Sequence record: PQ567651.1
Length of the DNA: 64,000 nucleotides
Strand: one strand, 5' to 3'
DNA from: Escherichia phage cardinal
Shown here piece by piece: positions 2,950 to 64,000 of the stretch (positions are counted from its first letter, which is position 1; each line of letters opens with the position of its first letter). The position numbers and the translations under genes were made by a program. The notes under the pieces were generated by a model, which was not told the DNA's origin, did not search any database, and worked only from the letters and a program-made list of their open reading frames with translations.

Positions 2950-2971
2950 AATGATAACCTTTCTTTGATTT

Positions 2972-2992
2972 GGCGGGAAACCATTTCCCGCC
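2972..2992 (-). promoter_or_regulatory. GC-rich palindrome, same family
   Basis: ggcgggaaaccatttcccgcc, identical to the copy at 5675-5695, followed by the conserved ctatgtgata box. Confidence 0.55.
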
Positions 2993-3003
2993 CTATGTGA
3001 TAT

Positions 3004-5648: not shown

Positions 5649-5674
5649 TGTGTTACCCTTTCTTTGATGGCCTG

Positions 5675-5695
5675 GCGGGAAACCATTTCCCGCCC
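5675..5695 (-). promoter_or_regulatory. GC-rich palindrome, same family
   Basis: ggcgggaaaccatttcccgcc plus ctatgtgata box, identical to the 2972-2992 copy. Confidence 0.55.
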
Positions 5696-5705
5696 TATGT
5701 GATAC

Positions 5706-7682: not shown

Positions 7683-7800
7683 TAAATGAGAAAATTCTCA
7701 TTTGCTAATGATTCTCATTCTCTTACTGAGAATGATTATCACTTACATAATTAAATGATAATGATTCTCATTTACAAATGAGAATGATTATCATACGCAT
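7683..7800. promoter_or_regulatory. cluster of AT-rich palindromes resembling Fur boxes
   Basis: tgataatgattctcatt and aatgagaatgattatcat match the GATAATGATAATCATTATC Fur consensus at about 14-15 of 19 positions; 3-4 overlapping copies. Confidence 0.35.
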
Positions 7801-8331: not shown

Positions 8332-8787
8332 TCACGATCCCACATTCCCATTTTTGATACCATAAATAGAATCATAAGGGCTTGCCTCTACGAACTCCTT
8401 ATCTGCGTAAGCGATAAGTTTATTTTTGAGATCTTCATTTTGTGTGTATTTAAGATACAAACCACGTTTGACAATCTTCTCCCGTAAAGAAGTCCAGGTA
8501 TCTTCATCATAATCTTTAACTAATCTGCCTAGACGTTTATAATATGCTTGTTCTTTTTCTCCTGTATATCTTAGATCTCCGGTTAAAATAGAAGATGCAA
8601 TATTGTAATCATAAAACAAACATGCTTTTCTCCACATCATATATTGTTCCACACAAGTAAATTCGACAGAACTTGTGATAGAATTATTATACTTGGGAGC
8701 TAAAGGTTCAATAAAAGATGATAGATACCAGTTGCTAAATTCATCTTTTGCCGAGAAAAAGAACACATACTTGTCAGTAATCCGCAT
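8332..8787 (-). CDS. NADAR (YbiA/DUF1768-like) domain protein, putative ADP-ribose N-glycosidase
   Basis: 151 aa; FFFS..DEFSN, CVEQYMMWRKA, YKRLGR, WTSLREKIVKRGLYLKYTQNEDLKNKL and SPYDSIYGIKNG align with the conserved blocks of E. coli YbiA. Confidence 0.65.
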   Translation of the reverse strand: MRITDKYVFFFSAKDEFSNWYLSSFIEPLAPKYNNSITSSVEFTCVEQYMMWRKACLFYDYNIASSILTGDLRYTGEKEQAYYKRLGRLVKDYDEDTWTSLREKIVKRGLYLKYTQNEDLKNKLIAYADKEFVEASPYDSIYGIKNGNVGS

Positions 8788-10185
8788 TTACACCTCCTTA
8801 TTGTATACTAATTTGCCACCATATTGTGTAACAATTTTTTGAAGATTTTCCAAATCAGAAACACTTACTGTTTCTGTATGACCATCTTTCAACTCTCTTG
8901 CCGTTAAAATACCAGTTTTTAATTTTTTCTTTATAGCTCTTTCAGCAGCCTTACATTGTTTCACTGTGCTAAAATCATATAAACAAATACGCTCCATAGG
9001 AAACATATTACAGCTATTTTGACGTTTTAATCGACTATCACTATTTTTAGCTATACCAAACTTAAGAGCAACTATAATATTATCATCCTTAACAATATTA
9101 ATATATAACTGCTGCTGACTATGACCAGCACACATAGGACAACCTCGACCGTGGCTTAATAAGGCATTAGCCCTCCCTGTCTGTTCCCCATGCACAAGAC
9201 AAAGATATTTAAACTTACCGTGACTTCTAGACGGTTTACCGATCCAACCTACCCAGACATACCCTTTCCCTTCTACTTCCTTTTTTACCCTGTAGGTAAT
9301 CTGATTTTCTGTATAGTGATAACTAGTTGCACAGCGGCAAGGGATACTTCCTTGTTTTAGGGGCCACCCTTTAGAGTAAAATTTACCATCGCAAACACCT
9401 GCTTGAACATATTCATCATGGGAGCAAACAGGACACTCAACCATCCATACTGCATCACGCTTGTTACGTTTCCCTGTATTGGTGAAGATAGTGCCTTCCT
9501 TAAATTTCCCTGTAGAAAAGAAATCTGCAATATGTTGATCGTCGGACATTGTTAGTGCCTTCCTTGTATTCTCATACCTACATAAAGGACAACCATAACC
9601 ACGTTTAAAATTGTTAATACTTGTAGTATCCCATTTATAACCACAGTGACACAACAAATCAAGTTTTGTTTTATGTCCTTTCCATTTTCCAACGTACCCT
9701 AACACCTGATACCCCTTCTTCTGTGCTATCTCTTCCAAGATCGGTAATTCTGTTTCCCATGCTAACGGTTTATTACTTGCACATGCCGGACAACCACGTC
9801 CATTCCTAAAATCAATAATGTTTGTGGTGTTCCACTCTCCATGTTTAGGGCAAATTATGCGAATTTTTGTTCGCACACCTCGCCACTCCTCGGCAAGACC
9901 TATAAAAGTAAACCCTCTTTCTTTAGCAATATCAACAAGGGAGATACATTCCTTTTCTTCTGTTACTTTTCTATGACCATTGCAATCGGAGCAACATTTA
10001 CCGCCTTTAGTTTTAAATACATTGATTATGGTACTTTCCCACTCTCCATGATCAGAGCAAGATAGCTTAAGCCTAGTCCTGCTACCTTTCCATTCACCAA
10101 CATAACCCAAGATTTGAATATTGTGATTTTTAGCAAGGGGTATTAATTCTTCTTTATATTGTTCCCATGATTTTAGTGCTACCAT
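8788..10185 (-). CDS. protein with five tandem zinc-ribbon-like repeats and a C-terminal T5orf172/GIY-YIG-like domain
   Basis: Five ~50-aa repeats of the form GY.G.WKG..T...L.C..HGEW......F..G.GC..C; C-terminus IVALKFGIAKNSDSRLKRQ...AERAIKKKL resembles the T5orf172 family. Confidence 0.5.
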   Translation of the reverse strand: MVALKSWEQYKEELIPLAKNHNIQILGYVGEWKGSRTRLKLSCSDHGEWESTIINVFKTKGGKCCSDCNGHRKVTEEKECISLVDIAKERGFTFIGLAEEWRGVRTKIRIICPKHGEWNTTNIIDFRNGRGCPACASNKPLAWETELPILEEIAQKKGYQVLGYVGKWKGHKTKLDLLCHCGYKWDTTSINNFKRGYGCPLCRYENTRKALTMSDDQHIADFFSTGKFKEGTIFTNTGKRNKRDAVWMVECPVCSHDEYVQAGVCDGKFYSKGWPLKQGSIPCRCATSYHYTENQITYRVKKEVEGKGYVWVGWIGKPSRSHGKFKYLCLVHGEQTGRANALLSHGRGCPMCAGHSQQQLYINIVKDDNIIVALKFGIAKNSDSRLKRQNSCNMFPMERICLYDFSTVKQCKAAERAIKKKLKTGILTARELKDGHTETVSVSDLENLQKIVTQYGGKLVYNKEV

Positions 10186-10259: not shown

Positions 10260-11294
10260 TTAAAACACACTTGCCAAAGTTGCACCATTGGTGATAGTTG
10301 GTTCCAGAACAATACGGAAAGAATCTTCTGGATCATCACTAAACACAACGATTTTACCGCCTGTAATAAGGTCTGCTTTCATTTTTGTCGCATTCAATGG
10401 AATTCGAGCATCTCCTTCATCATCAAAAACCACGTAAGAGCTATTAGCAAGGGCTTCTTTAGAGTCTGCATCACTTGGAGATGACAAGTACACGTCTAGT
10501 GTGCACGAACCACCTAAAAAGATTGCAGGTGTGAAGTTATGCCAACTAGATACCCAGCTAACTTTCTGAAGTTTTCCATTAATAACAACGCTGCTGATAT
10601 CCCATTTATTACCACCACCTAAAGAAACACCCATCATAGAGATGCATTCTTTAAAGGATAAATCAGGGTAGAAATTAAGTTCTTCTACTATACCTTGGAT
10701 CACATCAAAGGACAACTCTAAACTTACATCCCAAAGTCTTTGGAAATTATCAAAGTGTGCTTTGTTATCCAGGTTTTTATCTAAATAGTCAATCATAGTT
10801 TCTAGTGAGATTTTATCATAATTAAAATTATAAAACACACGACTAGGACGATTTAAAAAGAATTCAGAGATAAAACCACTGTTTTTAGTCAGAATAAACA
10901 GTTTATTACCACTGCCAGTACCATCTAACAAAGTGAGAAGTGCTTCTTGATCTTGTTTCTTCTCATACACTTTATCAAACTCGTCAAAAATAATCACTGC
11001 TTTGTCGGTGATCTTGCTAATAAGTTCAATGAAATTAGCATCGCTGTAGGCTTGAGTAACCATAATAGTTGGAATACCTTCTTCTACAAGGTCACGACTA
11101 ATGAGTTTGGCTAACATAGTTTTACCACTGCCCTTAGTTCCTGTCAGGAGCAAACCTGTATTTTTACCTTGTGCACTCCGGCGATGGAATGTACGAATAA
11201 CGTGATTTGCTCGTTTTTCTGTTTCACCATACAGAACATCCGGTACACCTGTTAGATTACCACGGCTTAAAAAAATAATTGCCAAGGGGATCAC
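10260..11294 (-). CDS. AAA-type P-loop ATPase; N-terminal ~30 codons lie in another frame (to ~11388)
   Basis: Walker A GTKGSGKT and Walker B IIFDEFDK; clear paralog of 26400..27560; N-terminal homology continues in a different frame up to an RBS-preceded ATG at 11388. Confidence 0.6.
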   Translation of the reverse strand: MIPLAIIFLSRGNLTGVPDVLYGETEKRANHVIRTFHRRSAQGKNTGLLLTGTKGSGKTMLAKLISRDLVEEGIPTIMVTQAYSDANFIELISKITDKAVIIFDEFDKVYEKKQDQEALLTLLDGTGSGNKLFILTKNSGFISEFFLNRPSRVFYNFNYDKISLETMIDYLDKNLDNKAHFDNFQRLWDVSLELSFDVIQGIVEELNFYPDLSFKECISMMGVSLGGGNKWDISSVVINGKLQKVSWVSSWHNFTPAIFLGGSCTLDVYLSSPSDADSKEALANSSYVVFDDEGDARIPLNATKMKADLITGGKIVVFSDDPEDSFRIVLEPTITNGATLASVF

Positions 11295-11400
11295 GACTAA
11301 CAGTATAGAATCCAGGTGGAAGATAGTTAGATTCCACGCCCATATCTTTATTTACACTTACAATATCACCATAAATCGTGTATTTCATTTTAAACCCCTT

Positions 11401-11838
11401 TTATTTTTGTTGAGATGAACGAATTAAATCAGCAGCAAATTCAATCAGATACACTTTTGGTGCAATAATGATTTTTAGCCAATCAAAATTCGAAAAGAAA
11501 ATAACAAATCCTAAAAAGAAAAAGAAAGCACAGACAACAAGACCAACAATAGGTAAAGCAGATACTTCACCATAGCGATCTCGTGACCACAGGCATTCTT
11601 TATCTTTAATTGCTTTTACGAGGTTCCGTACAGCAATAAAAGTAATAAACATAAAGCAAATACTAAAAAGTTGCCATAAACCTGCGGATACTGCTTTCCA
11701 CAATAACAATTGATGGATTACTTCTGGAATTTGTTGTTTTCCAAACTCCACAACATCACTCATTGTTTGAATAGTGACGTTAACCATGTTCAGAAGTACA
11801 TCCGTTGCTTTATCTGCGATTGCGTTTGTTTTACTCAT
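11401..11838 (-). CDS. hypothetical membrane protein
   Basis: 145 aa with at least two hydrophobic helices (LWQLFSICFMFITFIAV, LPIVGLVVCAFFFFLGFVIFF). Confidence 0.45.
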   Translation of the reverse strand: MSKTNAIADKATDVLLNMVNVTIQTMSDVVEFGKQQIPEVIHQLLLWKAVSAGLWQLFSICFMFITFIAVRNLVKAIKDKECLWSRDRYGEVSALPIVGLVVCAFFFFLGFVIFFSNFDWLKIIIAPKVYLIEFAADLIRSSQQK

Positions 11839-23832: not shown

Positions 23833-24690
23833 ATGACCCAAAAACTATATGAGGATGTAATCGGATTCCTCGAACAAACATCCGAAGAATTTACTCGTGA
23901 AAATGCAAACAAACCTGCAATGATTGTTAATACTCACCGAGATTTACTAGCAGGTATCCTAAGCAAGCACATGGCAATGACCCATATTTTACCTGAAGAT
24001 TTAGCAGAATGGCATAAAAGTGGGTATGGTCACATCCACGATTTAGATTATTTACTCTCACCTTTAACTAATTGTTGCCTGGTAAATTACCAAGATATGC
24101 TTGAGAACGGTTTCCGTATTGGTAATGCACATATTGAAAAACCAAAATCTATCGGTGTAGCGACTACTGTCCTAACTCAAATTATTCAAGCAGTAGCTTC
24201 TAGCCAATATGGTGGACAAACTTGTGCACATGTTGATACTGGGCTTAGTCAATACGTTAAAGCAAGTTTTAATAAAATATATGCCGATGTTGGCGATTAT
24301 GATATTGCTATGCGTATGGTAGATAAACAGGTCTATGATGCAATGCAAACTTTAATCTACCAGGTGAACACTCTAATGAGTGTAAATGGTCAGTCACCTT
24401 TTATAACAATTAGTTTAGGTTTGGATACCTCTGCTTTTGGTAGAATGATCACTAAAAACTACCTAATGGTGCACAAACAAGGATTGGGAAAAGATAGGGT
24501 AACTCCTGTGTTTCCTAAAGTTATCTTCTTCTTGGAAGATGGTGTTAACATGAAAGCTGGCGATCCAAACTATGATTTGAAGCAACTGGCAATGGAGTGT
24601 TGTGCTGAACGCATTTATCCTGATTTTATCTCTGTACCTTTAAACAAAGAAGTTACAGGATCTTCAGATGGTCGCGTCACAAGCATGGGT
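23833..24690 (+). CDS. nrdD: anaerobic ribonucleoside-triphosphate reductase, exon 1
   Basis: Aligns with E. coli NrdD from NENANK...RDLLAGI through GDPNYDLKQLAMEC to ...VTGS...MG; exon ends on U after the Gly codon. Confidence 0.85.
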
Positions 24691-24970
24691 AAACTATAAC
24701 TGCTCATGTAAAATCTGCCTAAACGGGGGAACTCTCAACGAGACAATCCCGTGCTAAACGTAACAGAACTCCCAACACAGAAGAAGGGGGGTACTATTAC
24801 GAAATGCCTAACGACTAGCTGTGATGAATGTAGCAGCGTAGGGTGTAAGCCTATGACACCCCAAATGGTAGACATGCTTTAAGCATGAAGATATAGTCTG
24901 ATCTGCATGGTGACATGCAGCAGCACGTAATGGTGCGGGAGTGGCCTTGCGAGCCACTTTGAACATAATG
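24691..24970 (+). mobile_element. group I self-splicing intron (ORF-less) in nrdD
   Basis: 280 nt separating two NrdD halves that sit in different frames; core element ctaaacgggggaactctc...gacaatcccgtgctaaa closely resembles the phage T4 td/nrd intron core; 5' exon ends in U and intron ends in G. Confidence 0.75.
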
Positions 24971-25912
24971 TGTAGAAGTTTCTTGTCATACTATGCAACA
25001 GAGCAAGGTGAAAAATATGATGGTCGTTTCAACTTAGGCGTAGTTTCTTTAAACTTACCTATCATTGCAGCAGAGTCCCGTGAAAAGGGCATCTTATTTA
25101 CTGAACTGTTGGAACAACATATGGAGATGGCGTATAAGGCACATATGCTACGTGTTAACCGTATTAGACATACCAAAGCATCTCAAAACCCTACATTGTT
25201 TATGGAAGGGGCTTTAGCTCGACTAGAAGCTAATGAAGAGATTGGTAAACTATTTGAAGGTGGTTATGCCTCTATTAGTATCGGTTATGTAGGTTTAGCA
25301 GAAGCTATGGAGATTTTATACCCAAATAACACCAATCCAAAAGCAATGGGTAAAAACATCCTTCAATATATGAAGGATATCTGTTGCACATTTAAAGAAC
25401 GTTCTGGTTTAGCTTTTAGTTTGTATGGAACACCAGCAGAATCCTTGTGCTATAAATTTGCCAAAGCGTTAAATGATCGCTATCCTGGCTCTATTGATCG
25501 TGACTATTTGACAAACTCTTTCCATCAACCTGTATGGATGCACACTACCCCGTTCCAAAAGTGGGATTATGAGGAAGGTTTTGCACAAATTAGTAATGGT
25601 GGGAACATAGGTTATGTAGAAACACCAAACCTTAAAAATAACTTGCAAGCACTGGAAACTCTTGTAGATTATGCCTACAATAAAATTCCTTATTTTGGCG
25701 TGAACCAACCTGTAGATCAGTGTTTCAAATGTGGTTTTCATGGTGAATTTAAGGCAACAGCTAAAGGCTTCGAGTGTCCAAGTTGTGGAAATCATGAAGA
25801 AGAATCCATATCTGTGATCAGAAGAGTGTCAGGATACCTTTCTGCTCCTAACTCTCGCCCTTATAATAAAGGTAAGATGCAAGAGGTACTAGAAAGGGAG
25901 AAACACTTTTGA
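24971..25912 (+). CDS. nrdD: anaerobic ribonucleoside-triphosphate reductase, exon 2
   Basis: Begins CRSFLS (E. coli MGCRSFLG), contains NLGVVSLNLP, the C..C...C..C zinc ribbon and glycyl-radical motif RRVSGYL. Confidence 0.85.
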   Translation, partial: CRSFLSYYATEQGEKYDGRFNLGVVSLNLPIIAAESREKGILFTELLEQHMEMAYKAHMLRVNRIRHTKASQNPTLFMEGALARLEANEEIGKLFEGGYASISIGYVGLAEAMEILYPNNTNPKAMGKNILQYMKDICCTFKERSGLAFSLYGTPAESLCYKFAKALNDRYPGSIDRDYLTNSFHQPVWMHTTPFQKWDYEEGFAQISNGGNIGYVETPNLKNNLQALETLVDYAYNKIPYFGVNQPVDQCFKCGFHGEFKATAKGFECPSCGNHEEESISVIRRVSGYLSAPNSRPYNKGKMQEVLEREKHF

Positions 25913-26399: not shown

Positions 26400-27560
26400 A
26401 TGTTTACAGTATTCGGCAATCAAATCTTTCTGCGTCAGAAATCTGGTACAGATATTGAAGAAATTCCAGCAGGAACTTTTGGTGTAGGTGTTACTCAAAG
26501 TGGTGAGTTCTTCCTGTATCCTAAAAACGATATGGAAGTCCCTTCAGTAACATACGGTGATACTGATGATAAATCAGAACGTATTATCAAAACGTTCCTT
26601 AGCCGCAAAGGTAAAAACACAGGTGTTCTCCTTGAAGGTACGAAAGGTAGCGGTAAAACTTTGCAAGCTAAAATGCTGTCTTCTGCTCTTCGTGAAATGG
26701 GTATTCCTACTATTTCTATCGGTAGTGCTTTTAATGGTGAAGGCTTTATCAATTTTATGTCTAAAATCACACAACCTGTGATGATTATGATCGATGAATT
26801 TGATAAACTGTATGCTGAAAAAGATGCACAAGATGGTTTGCTTACCCTGCTGGATGGTGTTGGTGGCTACGACAAACTGTTTGTATTGACTAAAAATGAT
26901 GGTTATGTATCAGAATTTTTGCGTAATCGTCCTAGCCGTATTTTCTACAGTTTTAGCTATAAGAAACTACCTAAAGCTACTATGGATGATTATCTGGCTA
27001 AAAATCTGGAGAACAAAGCCTTCTTACCAGACTTTGAAACGCTTTATAATCTCTCCGTGGATTTGAACTTTGATATTGTTCAGTCATTAGTAGAAGAACT
27101 TAACCGTTACCCTAATGACAAATTTTCTGATGCACTTGCACTAATGGGTATCAGTATTACTGAACACCGCTATGCTGCAAAAGAGGTTAAACTTCTGAAA
27201 GTTAACGGTGTAGATCGTACAGGAGATGTTTCGGCAGATACCGATATTGACGGTATGACAGCACAAGGTTTGTTTAGTGGTAATCGTTATGTTGTAGCTG
27301 TAGACCATAAACTAGGTGAAGAGCATCTTCCTGAAATGGAAGGGATCGTTACCGTAGAAGATAAAGATGAAGAAGGTGACTACTACTGGGGTGTAGACCG
27401 TATCTTGCTAACGTATGATGAAAAACACATCCGTACAATGGGTGGTGACGGTTATCACTTTATGTTCACCGATGATAAAGGTAACAACATTGAAGTTGTT
27501 ATTAAAAACAAAGAACGTAAAAACTACACAGAGTATGTGTTTGGTGGTCGTTCTTACTAA
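26400..27560 (+). CDS. AAA-type P-loop ATPase (paralog of 10260..11294)
   Basis: Walker A GTKGSGKT, Walker B MIMIDEFDK, LLTLLDG and LTKN blocks shared with the minus-strand paralog. Confidence 0.65.
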   Translation: MFTVFGNQIFLRQKSGTDIEEIPAGTFGVGVTQSGEFFLYPKNDMEVPSVTYGDTDDKSERIIKTFLSRKGKNTGVLLEGTKGSGKTLQAKMLSSALREMGIPTISIGSAFNGEGFINFMSKITQPVMIMIDEFDKLYAEKDAQDGLLTLLDGVGGYDKLFVLTKNDGYVSEFLRNRPSRIFYSFSYKKLPKATMDDYLAKNLENKAFLPDFETLYNLSVDLNFDIVQSLVEELNRYPNDKFSDALALMGISITEHRYAAKEVKLLKVNGVDRTGDVSADTDIDGMTAQGLFSGNRYVVAVDHKLGEEHLPEMEGIVTVEDKDEEGDYYWGVDRILLTYDEKHIRTMGGDGYHFMFTDDKGNNIEVVIKNKERKNYTEYVFGGRSY

Positions 27561-30426: not shown

Positions 30427-30663
30427 ATGTTGAAGTGCTTGAAAAAATTTAGAAACACTCGTGATTGTACTATCGGCAAGGTTTACGAGGCTATTCTCCT
30501 TGAAGATGGAGATCAAGTTCCTGCCCCGTATCACGCCTTTAATGGTCAGATTAGCAAAGTGGAAGGTGGTATTGCTATTTGCTTTATTGATGACGTAGGT
30601 GATGCTGTAGCTTTCCCTATCATTAACAAAGAAGATAAACTTAAAATTACAGAACTGAACTAG
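30427..30663 (+). CDS. hypothetical small protein
   Basis: 78-aa ORF; start uncertain (a 12-codon ORF with a better RBS lies just upstream in another frame). Confidence 0.35.
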   Translation: MLKCLKKFRNTRDCTIGKVYEAILLEDGDQVPAPYHAFNGQISKVEGGIAICFIDDVGDAVAFPIINKEDKLKITELN

Positions 30664-30740: not shown

Positions 30741-31718
30741 ATGCAACTGGGTTTCCCAATTATTGATGTGGTTGTTTTAGTGGGTATTTTAGTCTTGTCG
30801 ATTTGTATTGACTTCTTTGGACACAGAGAAAACAAAGAAATTTCATTTAAATCGGCAGTTGGTTGGTCAATTTTCTGGATTGGAGTATCATTAGCCTACT
30901 ATGGTTTTGTATACTTCCAACACGGTGCTGATTTTGCGAGCTTGTTCTTGAGTGGGTATGTGTTGGAGAAATCTCTTTCTGTAGATAACTTAGTAGTATT
31001 TGTGGCAGTATTCGCAAGTTTTGGTATTAAAAGCACACACTTGCAACACAAGATTCTACTTTGGGGTATTGCAGGTGCGATTGTCTTCCGAGGTGTGTTT
31101 GTAGCAGTAGGCACTTACTTGTTGAGTTTGGGCTGGTATGTTAATATCTTCTTCGGTGCTGTCATCCTTTTCTGTGCGGCTAAAATGGTATTCGCTGGAG
31201 ATAATGATGCAGAAGTTGATTACTCTAAACACTGGGCTACTCGCATTGTTCGTAAGCTGTTCCCTGTATCTGATCAGATGGATGGTGAGAAGTTCTTCAC
31301 AATCAAAAATGGTGTTCGTGTAGCAACTCCGGCTCTGGTTTGTGTGTTTGTAATGGAAATGGTTGACGTAATCTTTGCAGTAGACTCTGTTCCAGCAGTA
31401 ATTGCAGTGACACAAGAACCTCTGCTTGTATTTTCTTCGATGCTCTGTGCAATCTTAGGTTTACGTGCTCTGTTCTTTGTTCTTAGTGTTGCACTGAAGT
31501 ATTTGGTTCATCTGGAGAAAGCAGTTATCGTAGTCCTGGTATTTGTGGGTGCAAAACTGATGTATCATCCGTTTGCAGAAACTCTGCACGCAAAAATGAG
31601 TTTCCTGCCAGCACACATTGATCCGACGATCAGTATGTATATTGTGTTAGGTACTCTTGGGTTGGGTGTTGTTGCAAGTTTAATCTTCCCTGAAAAAGAA
31701 GATCAGACTGTTGCTTAA
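30741..31718 (+). CDS. TerC-family integral membrane protein
   Basis: Multiple transmembrane helices and both TerC signature repeats: LEKSLSVDNLVVFVAVF and MVDVIFAVDSVPAVIAVT. Confidence 0.75.
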   Translation: MQLGFPIIDVVVLVGILVLSICIDFFGHRENKEISFKSAVGWSIFWIGVSLAYYGFVYFQHGADFASLFLSGYVLEKSLSVDNLVVFVAVFASFGIKSTHLQHKILLWGIAGAIVFRGVFVAVGTYLLSLGWYVNIFFGAVILFCAAKMVFAGDNDAEVDYSKHWATRIVRKLFPVSDQMDGEKFFTIKNGVRVATPALVCVFVMEMVDVIFAVDSVPAVIAVTQEPLLVFSSMLCAILGLRALFFVLSVALKYLVHLEKAVIVVLVFVGAKLMYHPFAETLHAKMSFLPAHIDPTISMYIVLGTLGLGVVASLIFPEKEDQTVA

Positions 31719-31724
31719 TTCATT

Positions 31725-31746
31725 AAGCCCCTTCGGGGGCTTTGTT
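31725..31746 (+). terminator. intrinsic terminator
   Basis: agcccc-ttcg-ggggct followed by ttgttg. Confidence 0.5.
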
Positions 31747-31950
31747 GAGGTGATCTGATGGTGGTTTTACGTGTTCTTTGGATTCTGTTTGAAAATATTT
31801 GTTTTGCTCTAGGGTTGTTTTGTTTGATTTTTATCTTGACAACATATATTGATAACCATACAATTACTATCAACAGGAACGGAGAACAGATGTATTGTTT
31901 CTCTAGGGATTTTAAAAATTGTGTTGAGACTTTAAATGAGAGGGTTACAA

Positions 31951-32541
31951 ATGAAAAACATTAAATCTTTTATTGTTGCAGTTGTTTTAGGTAGTGCATT
32001 GCTGGTAGGTTGTGATGATTCTGAAAATGTACAAAATCAACGTTACCAACAAACACCAAATCAGATGGTAGATGAACAATATGTAAATCAGCCTGCACCT
32101 CAAGTTGTTCAAGCAGCACCTGCACAACCTTCAACAGTTGTTGTGCAAGGAGGCGGCAGTGGTTCTTCTGGCGTAGGTGAGTTTGCTACAGGTATGCTTC
32201 TTGGTCATATGTTGAGTGGTAATAGTGGCGGTGGTGGTTATAGAGATGGCGGTAGCAATACAACAATTATTAATAACAACGCTGCTCCTACAACTAACAG
32301 TAAAGCATATACAACACAAAAACATAGTTTTTATGATAAACAAGGGAATACATATACAACAACTAAACAAAACACAATTAAGCAGCAAAGTGTACAAACG
32401 TATTCACGCCCATCAACAACAAAAGTGAATAGTGATTACTCTGCTCGTAAGTCTTACTCAAGCCCTATTAGCTCTTATAGTAAGTCTTCGAAAAGTTATT
32501 CTTCGTCGAAACGTAGTTTTAGTAGCTCACGTCGTCGTTAA
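31951..32541 (+). CDS. lipoprotein with low-complexity S/T/N-rich C-terminal region
   Basis: Signal peptide with lipobox LLVGC; remainder rich in Q/S/T/G with SYS..SK repeats. Confidence 0.55.
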   Translation: MKNIKSFIVAVVLGSALLVGCDDSENVQNQRYQQTPNQMVDEQYVNQPAPQVVQAAPAQPSTVVVQGGGSGSSGVGEFATGMLLGHMLSGNSGGGGYRDGGSNTTIINNNAAPTTNSKAYTTQKHSFYDKQGNTYTTTKQNTIKQQSVQTYSRPSTTKVNSDYSARKSYSSPISSYSKSSKSYSSSKRSFSSSRRR

Positions 32542-32576
32542 TAATTTAATACAGATTAAATAAGAAGGAGAAACAG

Positions 32577-33428
32577 ATGAAACTAGAAGTTGGTAAAGTG
32601 TATCGCCTGGAAGGTTGGATCTTTAATCAAGAAATTCTTGAGAAGAATAAAGATGGTTTTGAGTTTGTTGGTACTACCAAAGAAAGTATGCACGATGACG
32701 AATACTGTAAATTCGTTGGTAAAAATACAGGTCAAGAACAATTTTGCTTTAAAAGCGCAATCGGTGATTATGCTTCTGTAATGCCAACACCAGAAAAGAC
32801 TTCGAAGCAATATACTGTCTTTGGTGTAAAACTTGAAGAACTTGTAGAACACCCACGTTTTGAAGAGTTCAAGGTTGCTGCAATGCGCAAGCATTCTGAA
32901 ATTAAAATACATAATTTGTTTGATTTAGAAGATCGGTTTGATATCTTTATGTATGATCGCAGGGAAAAGCATTTTGATGCAACGACTTCAAAATTTGCTG
33001 CAACAGAGGATATTAAAATCCTTGATGTTGATACCTTTCTTGAGAGTGTATCGTTTGTATTCATCCATAAATACAAGAAACGTAGTGATCATAAACGTGT
33101 GAAAGGAACTCCTCGTAAGAAACGTACTGTAAACAAAGCAACTTTGCACTTCACTTCTGGTGATAAATATACTCTCAAAGGGTTTGAAAGTGTTTTGTAT
33201 GATGCTGGAACGGGTAATATCAAGTTTATTATTAAGGCAACCTACAAAGGTACGGTATTGCACGAAGAGGCTGTTACACTACCTGTATTCGATATCTCTC
33301 GTGTTGAGGTACGGGGTGTTAAAGAGTCCTTCGATCTGGATTTCTTAACTGCTAATACCACGGGTTATGTTAATCTGGAAGCAGATGGAGCATTTATTAC
33401 TACAAATTATTTAGATATGTTTGTTTAA
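32577..33428 (+). CDS. hypothetical protein
   Basis: 283-aa ORF with AAGGAG RBS. Confidence 0.5.
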   Translation: MKLEVGKVYRLEGWIFNQEILEKNKDGFEFVGTTKESMHDDEYCKFVGKNTGQEQFCFKSAIGDYASVMPTPEKTSKQYTVFGVKLEELVEHPRFEEFKVAAMRKHSEIKIHNLFDLEDRFDIFMYDRREKHFDATTSKFAATEDIKILDVDTFLESVSFVFIHKYKKRSDHKRVKGTPRKKRTVNKATLHFTSGDKYTLKGFESVLYDAGTGNIKFIIKATYKGTVLHEEAVTLPVFDISRVEVRGVKESFDLDFLTANTTGYVNLEADGAFITTNYLDMFV

Positions 33429-33496
33429 TACTTAACTTGTGTTATGATGGTGGTACAGAGGTATCACCATTTACTAAAGAATATGGAGGAAATTGA

Positions 33497-34600
33497 ATGT
33501 CCAGTCCTTTTATCAGTGCCGTAAAAAGCAAACCGTCTGAAATGAGTGTATTCACGGCAACAACAGAAAAAAGTAAGTCTTTGTTTGCTCCAAGTGCTAT
33601 GGATGCAAGCCCTGTATATGCCCCTGCTGTTGCACGCCCTGTACAAATGCTGCCTCCAATGTCTCGTGAAGAGATTGAACAGGTTGGTGCTGATGCAGGA
33701 CTTACTCTTCGTAACCTTAATGCTGAAGTGCTTAAACACCAGCGTTCATCTCAGGGAGATGAAATGAGTGAACGTTTAACTGCGCTTATTAAGCAAGCAA
33801 AGCAACTTGATCCTAACTCTATTAAACAATCTAAAGGTTTAGGTAAACTAGTTAAGAAAGTTTTAGGTATGAAAGAAGATTTGTTTGGAGAATTTGACAC
33901 CATCAATAACCGTATTGAAGGTTTGGTAAAGACACTCCAAACAGACTTGAAAAAAGAAGAAGATTCTTTACGATATCTGCAACGTTTAGAGGAAGCTATT
34001 GCAAAATATGCTCTTAGCTTAAACAGGGATATAGAGCTTCTAACAGCTACTTATGAAAAAGAAGAAGTTCGCCTTAATACACTACCTGAAAATGAGGTAG
34101 AAGAGCGTCAACGTACTCGTGATACTATGGATCTGCTTGAAATTCGTATTGCAGACCTGAAAGCCTTACGCTTACTATGTGTTCAGATGGGGCCACGTGT
34201 ACAAAGTATGCAGAAAGTATCTGCAAGTTTGATGCGATCAGCCCGTAATATTGTGAATAATGTTATTCCTGCTTACTCTGCAAACTTTTCTATGTATATT
34301 GAAAGTCTACGCCAGAAGAAAGCAGCCGATACACAGAACAATGTACTGAATGAATTTAATGCTGCTATTGCAATGGGTAGTGATCTGGCTGCACAAAACC
34401 AGATTGAAGCTACACAACTTGCTAATCGTCAAGTATTGGATATTGAAACATTGCGTCGTGATCAAGAAAACTTAGTTAAAATGTTGGAAGAAACTAACCG
34501 AATCAACACTGAAGCCCGTGCTGCTCGTATTGATTACATTCAAGAAGTGCAGTCTCTTGAAGATGGTATGATTCAAACTGTTAAACGTGGTCTACTTTAA
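33497..34600 (+). CDS. TelA-like (toxic anion resistance / KlaB family) protein
   Basis: 367 aa, coiled-coil-rich; C-terminal blocks VIPAYSANFSMYIESLRQKKA, NEFNAAIAMGSDL and IDIETLRRDQENLVKMLEE match the TelA family pattern (assigned from memory). Confidence 0.55.
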   Translation: MSSPFISAVKSKPSEMSVFTATTEKSKSLFAPSAMDASPVYAPAVARPVQMLPPMSREEIEQVGADAGLTLRNLNAEVLKHQRSSQGDEMSERLTALIKQAKQLDPNSIKQSKGLGKLVKKVLGMKEDLFGEFDTINNRIEGLVKTLQTDLKKEEDSLRYLQRLEEAIAKYALSLNRDIELLTATYEKEEVRLNTLPENEVEERQRTRDTMDLLEIRIADLKALRLLCVQMGPRVQSMQKVSASLMRSARNIVNNVIPAYSANFSMYIESLRQKKAADTQNNVLNEFNAAIAMGSDLAAQNQIEATQLANRQVLDIETLRRDQENLVKMLEETNRINTEARAARIDYIQEVQSLEDGMIQTVKRGLL

Positions 34601-34613
34601 GGAGAAATATATT

Positions 34614-34820
34614 ATGAATATTAAAATTTACAAACTGTCTGGTTCTATGATTGCTGTTCAGTATGACAATGAAGATCGTTATGTTCTCCTCCAGGATGCT
34701 TGGTTAGATGATCCTAATGTATTCACTGTCCTGCGAGAACTACGTGCTGTCTATACCTATTCTTCTAAAGATGGTTTTGACAATTCAACAATGGAATTGG
34801 TAAAAGAGGAGAATGTGTAA
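34614..34820 (+). CDS. hypothetical small protein
   Basis: AAGGAG RBS then ATG (MNIKIYKL...). Confidence 0.4.
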   Translation: MNIKIYKLSGSMIAVQYDNEDRYVLLQDAWLDDPNVFTVLRELRAVYTYSSKDGFDNSTMELVKEENV

Positions 34821-35020
34821 TGAGTAAAGATATTCACTTAACTCGTGAAGAATTGCAAACCATTATGGAAGATGCTTTCATTGATGGTTGGAAACAAGGT
34901 CAAGAATCAGATTGGTATGATGCCGAAGATTTTTTGTATTATCATATGACTGCACCTGTAGACGAGCAAACACACTCTGAAACAACTTTGGCTTTAATTG
35001 ATCTTAAGGCTGGTGTATAA
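34820..35020 (+). CDS. hypothetical small acidic protein
   Basis: 66-aa ORF, translationally coupled. Confidence 0.4.
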   Translation: MSKDIHLTREELQTIMEDAFIDGWKQGQESDWYDAEDFLYYHMTAPVDEQTHSETTLALIDLKAGV

Positions 35021-35583
35021 TGGGGTGTTTTAGTTTCTTGTGCAAAGAGTCTGGTAATGCTGCTCTTTCTACCTCTTTCGATGGCTCTCCTTGCTACCTA
35101 TTTCTTTTGAAAGGTGGTAAGGTTGTCGAAGAGATGTATGGGAATTATGATAGCTATGGTAGTGTTTTCTCTAACGAAGAAGATAAACATGGCAATCGTA
35201 AAAGATTCAAGTGGTCTATGCCTTGGGAAGAAGTTTGTAATTTGATGTTCTCTTCCGATCTTGGAGATGGGATTGCTCTGGTATTAGAAGAGCACTTTAC
35301 AGGCGAGATCCCAACAGAAAGATCTGAAGAAGATCCTAACCAGGGTTGGGGTGATGGGGAAGAAGATCCAGATTGCTTCTTCAGCACTGAAAATAATAAA
35401 TTTAAACGTGTTGACAATCCTTACCACAAAGTGCATAATACTTGCATTGAGACAGAAGAAGACTCAAAGCTAGAAATTGAAGATGATTTAGTTGTAACTA
35501 TCTCTTTAAACGAGTTGCAAAAGATCACCAGAGAGGCTTTCTATTTAGGCTTGAGAGCAGGTAAAGGAGAAGACAGTGCTTAA
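35020..35583 (+). CDS. hypothetical protein
   Basis: 187-aa ORF, acidic. Confidence 0.45.
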   Translation: MGCFSFLCKESGNAALSTSFDGSPCYLFLLKGGKVVEEMYGNYDSYGSVFSNEEDKHGNRKRFKWSMPWEEVCNLMFSSDLGDGIALVLEEHFTGEIPTERSEEDPNQGWGDGEEDPDCFFSTENNKFKRVDNPYHKVHNTCIETEEDSKLEIEDDLVVTISLNELQKITREAFYLGLRAGKGEDSA

Positions 35584-35845
35584 ATTTAATATCAAAGACG
35601 ACAAATCAGATGAACCTAAATGTTTTGGAGAACTTGACGTAGGTGATACATTTGTATATTATGTTGCCTATCAAGATTCTGGTTTAGATACGTTCAGAAA
35701 CTTAGTGTTTATTAAAGTTAATACAAACCAAGCAATGTGTCTGAACGGTTCGCAAAGAGGTCAAATTAGCTGTATTTCGTATGATACAGAAATGGTAGAA
35801 GTGGATTTAGAAGTTACTAACATTACACTCAGAAAGGAGAAATAA
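35576..35845 (+). CDS. hypothetical protein
   Basis: 89-aa ORF. Confidence 0.4.
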   Translation: MLKFNIKDDKSDEPKCFGELDVGDTFVYYVAYQDSGLDTFRNLVFIKVNTNQAMCLNGSQRGQISCISYDTEMVEVDLEVTNITLRKEK

Positions 35846-35846
35846 T

Positions 35847-36640
35847 ATGTCCAATAAAATCAGTCTTAAAAAACGTCAAGAAACTCTTACCGTATCTCTG
35901 CGTAAGAAAAAGATTAACGATGTTGTTCTTCGTGTCGGTAGCGCCTTAGATATTTCGGGTAGTATGTGTGAGCTGTATCGTGATGGCACTGTTAGTGATT
36001 TTGTAGGTAAGCTGCTGCCGTTTGGTATGAAGTTTGATGATAATGCACAGATTGACATGTGGGCTTTCAATAGTTCTTCTTTTGAACTGCCTCCTGCAAC
36101 GGCTGATGTATATGATGATTATGTCGGCTCTTGTATGTCTAACGTTTGCATCAATGGTGGTACAGCTTATGCTCCAGTAATGCAAGAGATCTATGATACA
36201 TACTTCGGTAGTGTACCTATGAAAAATATTACACGCGAAGTCGTTGAGTATGAAGAAGTTCCGGCTAAGGGTTTCCTTGCTAAACTAACTGGTAAAAAGA
36301 ACTTGTAGAAGTAACACGTACTGTTGTAGAACAGGTTGTAGATACTGATGCACAAGTTGATCGTACTCCTGCAATGATTTTCTTCCAAACTGACGGGGAG
36401 AACATGGATACTTCAGCAGTACGTAGCTTACTGAACAAACACCGCAATACGCCTGTTTACTGGTTTATGGTTGGTGTAGGTAATGCAAACTTTAAATTCC
36501 TGAAAGACTTGGCAAAGGAATACGATAATGTTGACTTTATCGGTATTGCAGATTTGTCCTTGTCTGATGAAGAACTTTACGATAAACTGTTATCCGAAGA
36601 GTTTGGTGAGTGGGTTAAAAAATTTGGAGCAAAAGCGTAA
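35847..36640 (+). CDS. vWA-domain protein (TerY-like), reading frame interrupted by a -1 shift near 36291-36300
   Basis: MIDAS motif DISGSM in frame 0 (35847..36308); the vWA domain continues as IFFQTDGENMD in the -1 frame (36296..36640); junction at ggT AAA AAG. Confidence 0.55.
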
Positions 36641-36712
36641 AAAACGCTTGACTTTGTAGAAAAGATTAGTAAAATAGACAACGTAAATTAACAACAAAGG
36701 AGATAATAAATT

Positions 36713-37309
36713 ATGACTCAGAAAATTTCCCTGAAAAAAGGTTCTAGCGAAAAAGTTTCTCTGAAAAAGATCGCACCAGCACTGAAACGCATTCGTCTGG
36801 AATTCTCTTGGAAATCTAACGAAAAACTGGATCTGGATGTTAGTGCTCTGATTTGCCGACACAATGCATCTGGTCTGCCGGAACTGTTGTCTCCTCGTCA
36901 CCTGGTGTGCTACGCGCAGAAATTTGATCCTGAACGTTCTACTTTTGCAGGTGAAGATGTTCGTGATGGTGTAGGACAGATGGAGCAGATCGATGTTACT
37001 CTGGATAATATCTCTGCTGAAGCACAGGAAATTGCATTCGTAATTACTATTGATGACGAAACGGGTAAGAAACGCCTTGGTCACGCTACCGAAGGTTTCC
37101 TTAAAATCTTCGATGATGAACGTAACGTTGAACTGCTGGATTTTGACTTCTTGGCTCCAGAACTTGCAGGTAATACCATTTGCCACGTTGCCTCCCTGGT
37201 GCGGGAAGATAATGAATGGAAACTGAAAGCATATGGTGTAGGTAAAGCTGGACTTGACATTTATGATGTAGTTAAAGCGTTTGGCGCTGGTGACGATTGG
37301 TTCGAGTAA
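36713..37309 (+). CDS. TerD-domain protein
   Basis: ISLKKG...VSLKK...LEFSWKS...LDLDVSALI...GEDVRDGVG..EQIDV...IAFVITI....FDFLAPELAGNT matches TerD/TerZ family blocks. Confidence 0.75.
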   Translation: MTQKISLKKGSSEKVSLKKIAPALKRIRLEFSWKSNEKLDLDVSALICRHNASGLPELLSPRHLVCYAQKFDPERSTFAGEDVRDGVGQMEQIDVTLDNISAEAQEIAFVITIDDETGKKRLGHATEGFLKIFDDERNVELLDFDFLAPELAGNTICHVASLVREDNEWKLKAYGVGKAGLDIYDVVKAFGAGDDWFE

Positions 37310-62773: not shown

Positions 62774-64000
62774 TTATTCGGTTACGGTTTTTCTAGATAT
62801 TTCATCCCATTGGTTCGTGTAAAATTTAGTTAACGTCAATGTTTCTCCAGCTTGCATAGAGAATGAGGTATTCCCTTTAAGACGTATACCGGATGAATTA
62901 TGAGAAATAACCGTTCCATTAACTGTGGCCCTAATCTTAATTGTCTGGCCCAACACACCATCAGTGAAATCGGTTATGGTAGTGGCATCGCTCAGGATGA
63001 TCGTATCTCTGTCTTTGACTGATGGTGTAGAGTTACCTTTGTAGGACAAAATTGGACCGAAATCCCCAGAATAATCTGTAGTATTACCAGCTACATAAGC
63101 AGAAATCAACTTATAACTAAGAGTAGATAATATTCCTGTAGTATTCCCTGTGACTCTACCGCCCATTATTGAACAACCGGAAGCTGCAATCACGATCCCT
63201 CTGTTGTTCCGAATTACGCTCCCCACTTTGATAACAGCATTTATTGAAGAACAATAGATTCCATCTCCCGAATTATCCTTACATTCTGATACATCAATCG
63301 TAGGGGTATCACATTTTGTTATTGACAGACCAGCCATAGTATTTTCTCTGGAAGTGTGCGAAAGAATTTCAATATTGTTTAAAGTTGGATATAACGCATT
63401 ATCAGCACCTGTGAGAACCCCATTTTGTGTGTTGGAAATAGTGATATTACCCACACATTTAACATTATGATGATTAAAGATATACAACCCGCTACGGGAA
63501 CATGCTTTAATAATATTGTTAGCAACAACGACAGTAGAATTTGGTTTAAATGATTCAGAATTGGCGTTAGTCCCTACCCCCTGCTGTAGTGCATCTGAAA
63601 TCATAATCCCATAATAAGCCCCACGAGAAATTATATTATTGGAAATAATGGCTTCAGATGTTGCGTTCACACCAATACACGCTGGTGAAAGTGTCGTAGA
63701 ATCGGTGTTTTGATTTGTGAGATCTATGGTATTCCCAATCACTTTGATACCTTCGGCAGACAAAATGTATATCCCTGATCCGTAAGTATATGTTTGGGTT
63801 GTGGTATTAAGAACATTACCATAAATATTCTTAATGGTGTTCCCTTGTACCAATGTATTGGTGAGTGTCCCTGTCTTTGTTTCCAGATTGTTATAAACGA
63901 CTATACCATACCGCGTACAATTTTCAATAGTATTGTTAACTATTCTGTTGGCATTAGAATGGTCCCCATCATCAATTGTTTGCAAAACAATAGCAGTATC
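62774..64000 (-). CDS. beta-helix tailspike-like protein, 5' end beyond window
   Basis: Repetitive beta-helix-like segments (NTIENCTRYGIVVYNN, NNIISRGAYYGIMISD, NNIIKACSRSGLYIFNHHN); frame remains open to the window edge. Confidence 0.55.
   Translation of the reverse strand, partial: DTAIVLQTIDDGDHSNANRIVNNTIENCTRYGIVVYNNLETKTGTLTNTLVQGNTIKNIYGNVLNTTTQTYTYGSGIYILSAEGIKVIGNTIDLTNQNTDSTTLSPACIGVNATSEAIISNNIISRGAYYGIMISDALQQGVGTNANSESFKPNSTVVVANNIIKACSRSGLYIFNHHNVKCVGNITISNTQNGVLTGADNALYPTLNNIEILSHTSRENTMAGLSITKCDTPTIDVSECKDNSGDGIYCSSINAVIKVGSVIRNNRGIVIAASGCSIMGGRVTGNTTGILSTLSYKLISAYVAGNTTDYSGDFGPILSYKGNSTPSVKDRDTIILSDATTITDFTDGVLGQTIKIRATVNGTVISHNSSGIRLKGNTSFSMQAGETLTLTKFYTNQWDEISRKTVTE

Follow-up and report, generated by a model that had tools for sequence, protein, structure and literature searches.

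The window, a stretch of 64,000 nt from Escherichia phage cardinal (PQ567651.1), carries on its minus strand an ATPase gene that is divided between two reading frames at a run of T. The gene opens with an ATG at 11388-11386 (-), and a Shine-Dalgarno-like AGGGG, found by direct reading of the sequence at 11399-11395 (-), lies ahead of it with a 6-nt spacer, at the place homologous to that where phi92 has an annotated RBS. From this ATG a 43-aa ORF, MKYTIYGDIVSVNKDMGVESNYLPPGFYTVSRDPLGNYFFKPW, runs to a TAA at 11259-11257 (-). This 5' fragment of the gene (11257-11388, -) consists of native codons 1-39 followed by four out-of-frame residues, FKPW, and the stop codon. The run itself comprises exactly seven T at 11275-11269 (-), or A7 on the plus strand, so that codons 38-40 read TAT TTT TTT, and it is one base in excess of the relatives, which have either T6 or C followed by T5. 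A second frame is open from 11294 to a stop at 10262-10260 (-) and reads ...SRGNLTGVPDVLYGE...; within it, the rest of the ATPase gene occupies 10260-11270 (-) in the +1 frame and extends from native L40 to F375 plus the stop codon. Walker A (GTKGSGKT) and Walker B (IIFDEFD) motifs can both be read in the translation, and both lie 3' of the break. The stretch 11388-10260 measures 1129 nt (3n+1), and with one base removed it is a single ORF.

An earlier, sequence-only reading of this DNA had described the same layout, with an RBS-preceded ATG at 11388, a stop after the seven-T run and continuation in another frame, and direct reading bears it out. That reading had further put the part matching the paralog at about 30 codons; the match to the paralog stands, but the native part is 39 codons long, and it is the last four of the 43 that are out of frame. 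A shorter, GTG-initiated protein, which had been entertained as a genuine product, finds no such backing: the 344-aa ORF is a mechanical ORF call that begins with nine codons (MIPLAIIFL) read out of frame ahead of the T7 run. No Shine-Dalgarno motif is seen in the sequence ahead of its GTG, and the first in-frame ATG of the downstream frame comes after the Walker A motif GTKGSGKT; a shorter GTG-started protein is therefore unlikely.

By its sequence the window belongs to a Justusliebigvirus, i.e. a phi92-like coliphage of the Stephanstirmvirinae. The 1.9 kb surrounding the site align with 55 phage records at 96-99% identity; over 25 kb, the top match has 97%. The split gene is the homologue of phi92 gp221 (YP_009012554.1, annotated as 'ATPase', 375 aa). 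It shares with phi92 gp221 and the other Justusliebigvirus orthologues its locus and its neighbours, gp220 upstream and the endonuclease gp222 downstream, at a nucleotide identity of 97-99%, and the homologous CDS in phi92, ALITA, Paula, arall and UAB_1 is a single gene of 1128 nt. Once one T is removed, the protein of the window is 100% identical to that of phi92; the difference is that phi92 has T6, whereas the T7 of the window splits the ORF into 43 and 344 codons. Against PF00004 the restored protein reaches 38.9 bits, with the cut-off at 21.2, and its match to phrog_2376 (E = 6.6e-108) spans positions 1-357 of the 363 in the profile; the N-terminal fragment aligns from profile position 1, and the 3' part carries the PF00004 match. 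With a score above the profile threshold, a Walker A motif (GxxxxGKT) and a Walker B motif (hhhhDE), it qualifies as an AAA ATPase. A PDB sequence search of the ATPase returned weak p97/Cdc48-type AAA matches alone, which say nothing further about its function.

A second copy of this type, the homologue of phi92 gp190, is intact in the window (26400-27560, +, 386 aa). The two proteins share an N-terminal region of about 60 aa and the AAA module at 47% identity, and both match phrog_2376 over its full length as well as PF00004; they differ in their C-terminal ~120 aa, which are unrelated, in orientation and in the state of the copy. By BLASTP, residues 3-256 of the restored protein align with residues 2-253 of the paralogue (254 residues, 47% identity, E = 1e-81) with no gap over the break. 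Removal of one T thus yields a continuous paralogue-like protein, as had been proposed, and because the alignment runs gaplessly over the site, the break is a real discontinuity in a real gene and not a chance pattern of ORFs. The presence of two divergently oriented paralogues, which had been singled out as notable in itself, proves to be nothing peculiar to the window: the pair is phi92 gp190 and gp221, both annotated in that phage, and the homologues of both are intact in the related loci read and conserved across the genus.

The frame break, meanwhile, is absent from the relatives. A 53-nt query over the T7 run aligns end to end with 52 nt in 55 of 55 related phage records, and all 17 loci read directly, which comprise isolates and ENA and Logan metagenome contigs, are in frame, with TAT TTT TTA (T6) in six and TAC TTT TTA (CTTTTT) in the other 11; the TAT to TAC change that interrupts the run in these 11 is synonymous. 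The exact T7 string is absent from IMG/VR, JGI metagenome contigs and GTDB genome contigs, and the in-frame string is present in IMG/VR and in metagenome contigs. The one other occurrence of the T7 string in the collections scanned is the Logan assembly of SRR33749226, which is the same genome. When one T is deleted, the resulting 375-aa protein is residue-identical to the commonest gp221 allele in a public protein collection (323 contigs), and the restored gene can be aligned to 17 relatives without a gap and shows zero private substitutions. The extra T is thus the sole private feature of gp221, and for this reason it is either not real or extremely recent. A frame break conserved in related genomes had been named as the observation that would speak against an error, and what is seen is the opposite, each of the 55 records being one base shorter. 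The T7 run represents a change of one base in length (T6 to T7) that is not programmed and is private to one genome, in a gene that normally encodes a single protein of 375 aa, and as such it is a known and ordinary kind of phenomenon.

Three explanations had been offered for the run, namely a sequencing error, a recent mutation and +1 recoding, and it is the last of these that falls away. Functional recoding would produce the full-length ATPase either through a +1 shift of the ribosome at U UUU UUU A or through slippage during transcription of T7, and would set how much 43-aa peptide is made relative to the 375-aa enzyme. In its favour, a +1 shift on UUU-U leaves tRNA-Phe able to pair perfectly again, and a run of seven bases permits a little polymerase slippage, but the frame is broken in none of the 55 records and none of the 17 loci read, and in most relatives a synonymous C interrupts the run. 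The site, UAU UUU UUU AAG CCG UGG UAA, offers UUU and AAG as the codons after the shift, neither of them a stop or rare, and the UAA comes three codons on. Reading of the sequence upstream of the shift site found no SD-like element or GGAGG, and the 79 nt downstream, which fold at -13.5 kcal/mol, are no more stable than shuffled sequence (z = +0.43), so that a 3' stimulatory structure is lacking. Known transcriptional-slippage genes use runs of roughly nine bases, and seven falls below this; where a conserved A/T tract of some 9 nt or longer would be expected, there are 7 nt here and 6 or 5 in the relatives. The site accordingly resembles the prfB (RF2) frameshift and slippage genes such as those of IS elements and Thermus dnaX only formally, in that two frames at a repetitive site need a +1 shift, or the loss of one base from the RNA, to be joined. 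It differs in that the break is unconserved, the shift codon holds no in-frame stop, an upstream SD and a downstream structure are both missing and the run is too short. A programmed +1 frameshift of the prfB kind, lacking conservation, a slow codon, an SD stimulator and a 3' structure, is effectively refuted, and functional recoding as a whole is extremely improbable. Still less probable is a phase-variable contingency tract that toggles gp221 within phage populations. A coding homopolymer in a dispensable gene is the sole point in its favour; against it, none of the 55 phage records and none of the metagenomic or IMG/VR contigs has an out-of-frame length, and the tract is short and is interrupted in 11 of the 17 loci read. 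A contingency locus would show several run lengths, out-of-frame ones included, and T7 occurs in this genome alone, so this candidate was rejected. Sequencing error and recent mutation both still stand.

The T7 run is not the only change of its kind in this genome. The whole window was compared with four relatives (arall, phi92, alia OZ035770 and UAB_1) and then with 10-20 further loci, and four more private ±1 changes in A/T runs were found, which makes five within about 70 kb, in runs of 4-7 nt. At 8351-8355 (-), T5 in place of the relatives' T4 divides a NADAR-domain gene (phi92 gp223 homologue, 183 aa) into 151 and 46 aa, T4 being present in 18 of 19 relatives' loci. At 30442-30447 (+), A6 replaces the A5 of 14 of 14 relatives in codons 10-12 of the gp183 homologue (82 aa), of which a 78-aa ORF survives from an alternative ATG at 30427. 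At 36294-36298 (+), A5 replaces the A6 of 14 of 14 relatives and splits a vWA-TerF-like gene (phi92 gp173 homologue, 264 aa) into 153 and 88 aa. The fifth change lies at about 64,405-64,409, some 400 nt past the end of the window, where T5 instead of T6 breaks a tailspike gene in two, a 197-aa piece with Tail_spike_N and a 516-aa one with the beta-helix; the reference here is phages AV125 and AV123 (99.5% identical), which have a single 731-aa CDS with T6, and the window ORF at 62774-64000 is part of this tailspike gene. A further candidate, A4 at 7691-7694, was dropped as a private indel, since A4 is common to 10 of 18 relatives and represents a natural A4/A5 polymorphism in an intergenic hairpin.

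In each of the five split genes the coding sequence is otherwise undamaged, restored gp173 being an exact match to a protein on 306 contigs and restored gp183 to one on 80 contigs. All five genes are intact in every relative read, except for one noisy metagenome contig at the NADAR site: CYGL01000295.1 (about 9634-9759) has T5 in this gene and, 20 nt away, a C-run lengthened by one C, and its T5 looks like homopolymer noise of an older assembly rather than shared ancestry. The window has 306 private substitutions and the four relatives 230-342 each, yet no gene-breaking private 1-nt indel was found among those examined in the four relatives, where such indels are located between genes or at gene ends. 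The substitutions private to the window lineage in a 20.6-kb stretch comprise 35 synonymous and eight nonsynonymous ones, a ratio which indicates that purifying selection has acted on this lineage. In this genome the genes for helicase, primase, DNA polymerase and baseplate are intact.

Five private ±1 discrepancies in A/T runs, set in otherwise pristine conserved genes, have the classic look of miscalls, and purifying selection on the lineage combined with five frame-destroying indels gives the picture expected of errors. The changes are private to one data set, consist of several ±1 homopolymer events and are accompanied by no other gene decay, which is how an artefact presents itself. With the homopolymer-length consensus errors of flow-based or nanopore assemblies they share that they are isolated ±1 changes, confined to A/T runs, commoner in longer runs and private, in genes otherwise undamaged; they differ in being reproduced by a second assembler, in the shortness of the runs (4-7 nt) and in that insertions, which make up three of the five, are about as common as deletions. 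Short runs and insertions are atypical of nanopore under-calling, and if the sequencing run is Illumina, consensus-level miscalls in runs of 4-7 nt are very unlikely. The private substitutions show neither a methylation-motif signature (GATC, CCWGG) nor a transition/transversion anomaly. The strong prior for an artefact has to be weighed against concordant assemblies, and on balance the preferred reading, that the extra T is a homopolymer-length miscall carried by the reads behind the genome, is given about an even chance. The cause would then lie in base calling or consensus and not in the phage DNA.

The concordance comes from the Logan contig SRR33749226_0 (71,993 nt), a de Bruijn-graph assembly in which window position equals contig position + 5674. 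Over the 41 kb compared it matches the window at 100% identity, some 200 A/T runs of 5-6 nt included. All the indels are present in it, and among its called proteins are the exact fragments of 43, 344 and 153 aa. As the second assembly is concordant, the indels represent what most of the reads show and not an accident of the assembler. A literature search found no account of SRR33749226 or of homopolymer changes in Justusliebigvirus. The contig starts exactly at the first k-mer past a true 32-nt repeat (window 5673-5704 = 2971-3002), and an end at a true repeat suggests clean, accurate reads.

These observations speak for the rival reading in which the extra T is real, a very recent replication-slippage insertion that knocked out a dispensable gp221, with the other four frameshifts real too; the phage might have been passaged with selection relaxed, via bottlenecks or in an indel-prone regime, e.g. 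in a mismatch-repair-deficient host. Besides the perfect agreement of the two assemblies over 41 kb, with a 72-kb Logan contig that breaks only at an exact 31-mer repeat, no substitution-type error signature is present, the gp183 indel leaves a 78-aa ORF, and all five changes fall in plausibly dispensable genes, either accessory ones or one tailspike of several. Natural relatives without most of gp221 also exist: a clean 1,042-nt deletion (window 10588-11629, joining 11630 to 10587) that takes the 3' end of the gp220 homologue and the first ~800 nt of gp221 is found on three other public contigs, including Logan SRR15051506, and because three natural contigs carry it, gp221 looks dispensable in nature. 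The chance that five random indels would all spare likely-essential genes is estimated at about 0.29, so the avoidance of such genes is not significant and does not discriminate between the two readings; it is a count in which one of the five later proved not to be private, while the tailspike, the fifth private change, was classed as likely essential.

Against a real mutation, five uncompensated frameshifts would have accumulated at the tip of one lineage, compared with none in four relatives of similar private branch length, and the gp221 site is in frame in all 55 records. Private amino-acid changes are absent from gp221, gp173 and gp183, and the substitutions of the lineage in the 20.6-kb stretch show strong purifying selection. 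At ordinary phage mutation rates, as generally estimated, the fixation of five such indels would take thousands of bottlenecked passages. No near-identical relative was found by which the indels could be dated, the closest contig with the same exact baseplate protein being only 98.3% identical. A real insertion is a serious possibility that falls somewhat short of an even chance.

Should T7 be real, translation from the ATG at 11388 would end after 43 codons and, because the downstream frame is without a credible start before the P-loop, the ATPase gene would be a null allele apart from trace slippage; the expected products would be the 43-aa fragment alone and at most traces of full-length ATPase from spontaneous U7 slippage. 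A variant of the same idea, in which low gp221 expression by spontaneous +1 ribosomal or RNA-polymerase slippage on U7/T7 makes a natural hypomorph and, with the four other frameshifts also real, a large lytic phage is undergoing rapid slippage-driven shedding of accessory genes (NADAR, TerF-like, ATPase and one tailspike), is very improbable. If the changes are real, gp221, the NADAR protein, the TerF-like protein and one tailspike would be dispensable for the growth of a phi92-like phage, a conclusion that would be mildly useful and not surprising.

For annotation, the locus should be entered as a frameshifted copy of a gp221-type ATPase or corrected to 375 aa, not as separate proteins of 43 and 344 aa, and it is no recoding candidate. 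As at least five genes are split at homopolymers, every split gene in this genome needs a check at the level of the reads before any biological interpretation.

Several other features of the window were recorded. The exact 32-nt direct repeat at 2971-3002 and 5673-5704 contains a GC-rich hairpin, GGCGGGAAACCATTTCCCGCC, and is probably a reused terminator. The phi92 gp222 homologue (8788-10185, -) encodes a 465-aa endonuclease-like protein with repeated CapR/DUF723 modules, and its length, which ranges from 329 to 467 aa among relatives, suggests gain and loss of modules. The large subunit of an anaerobic ribonucleotide reductase (23833-25912, +) is divided between two ORFs. The same holds for phi92, for which a spliced variant has been annotated; among relatives, some encode it in one gene of 599 aa and in others an HNH-like insert is present. 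The piece between the two ORFs shows a G6/G5 polymorphism at 24786-24791 that is common to the window and one relative. Finally, a tellurite-resistance-like cluster at 30741-37309 (+), made up of TerC, TelA, vWA-TerF-like and TerD genes with PRTase_3 and Macro-domain genes ahead of them, is conserved across the genus.
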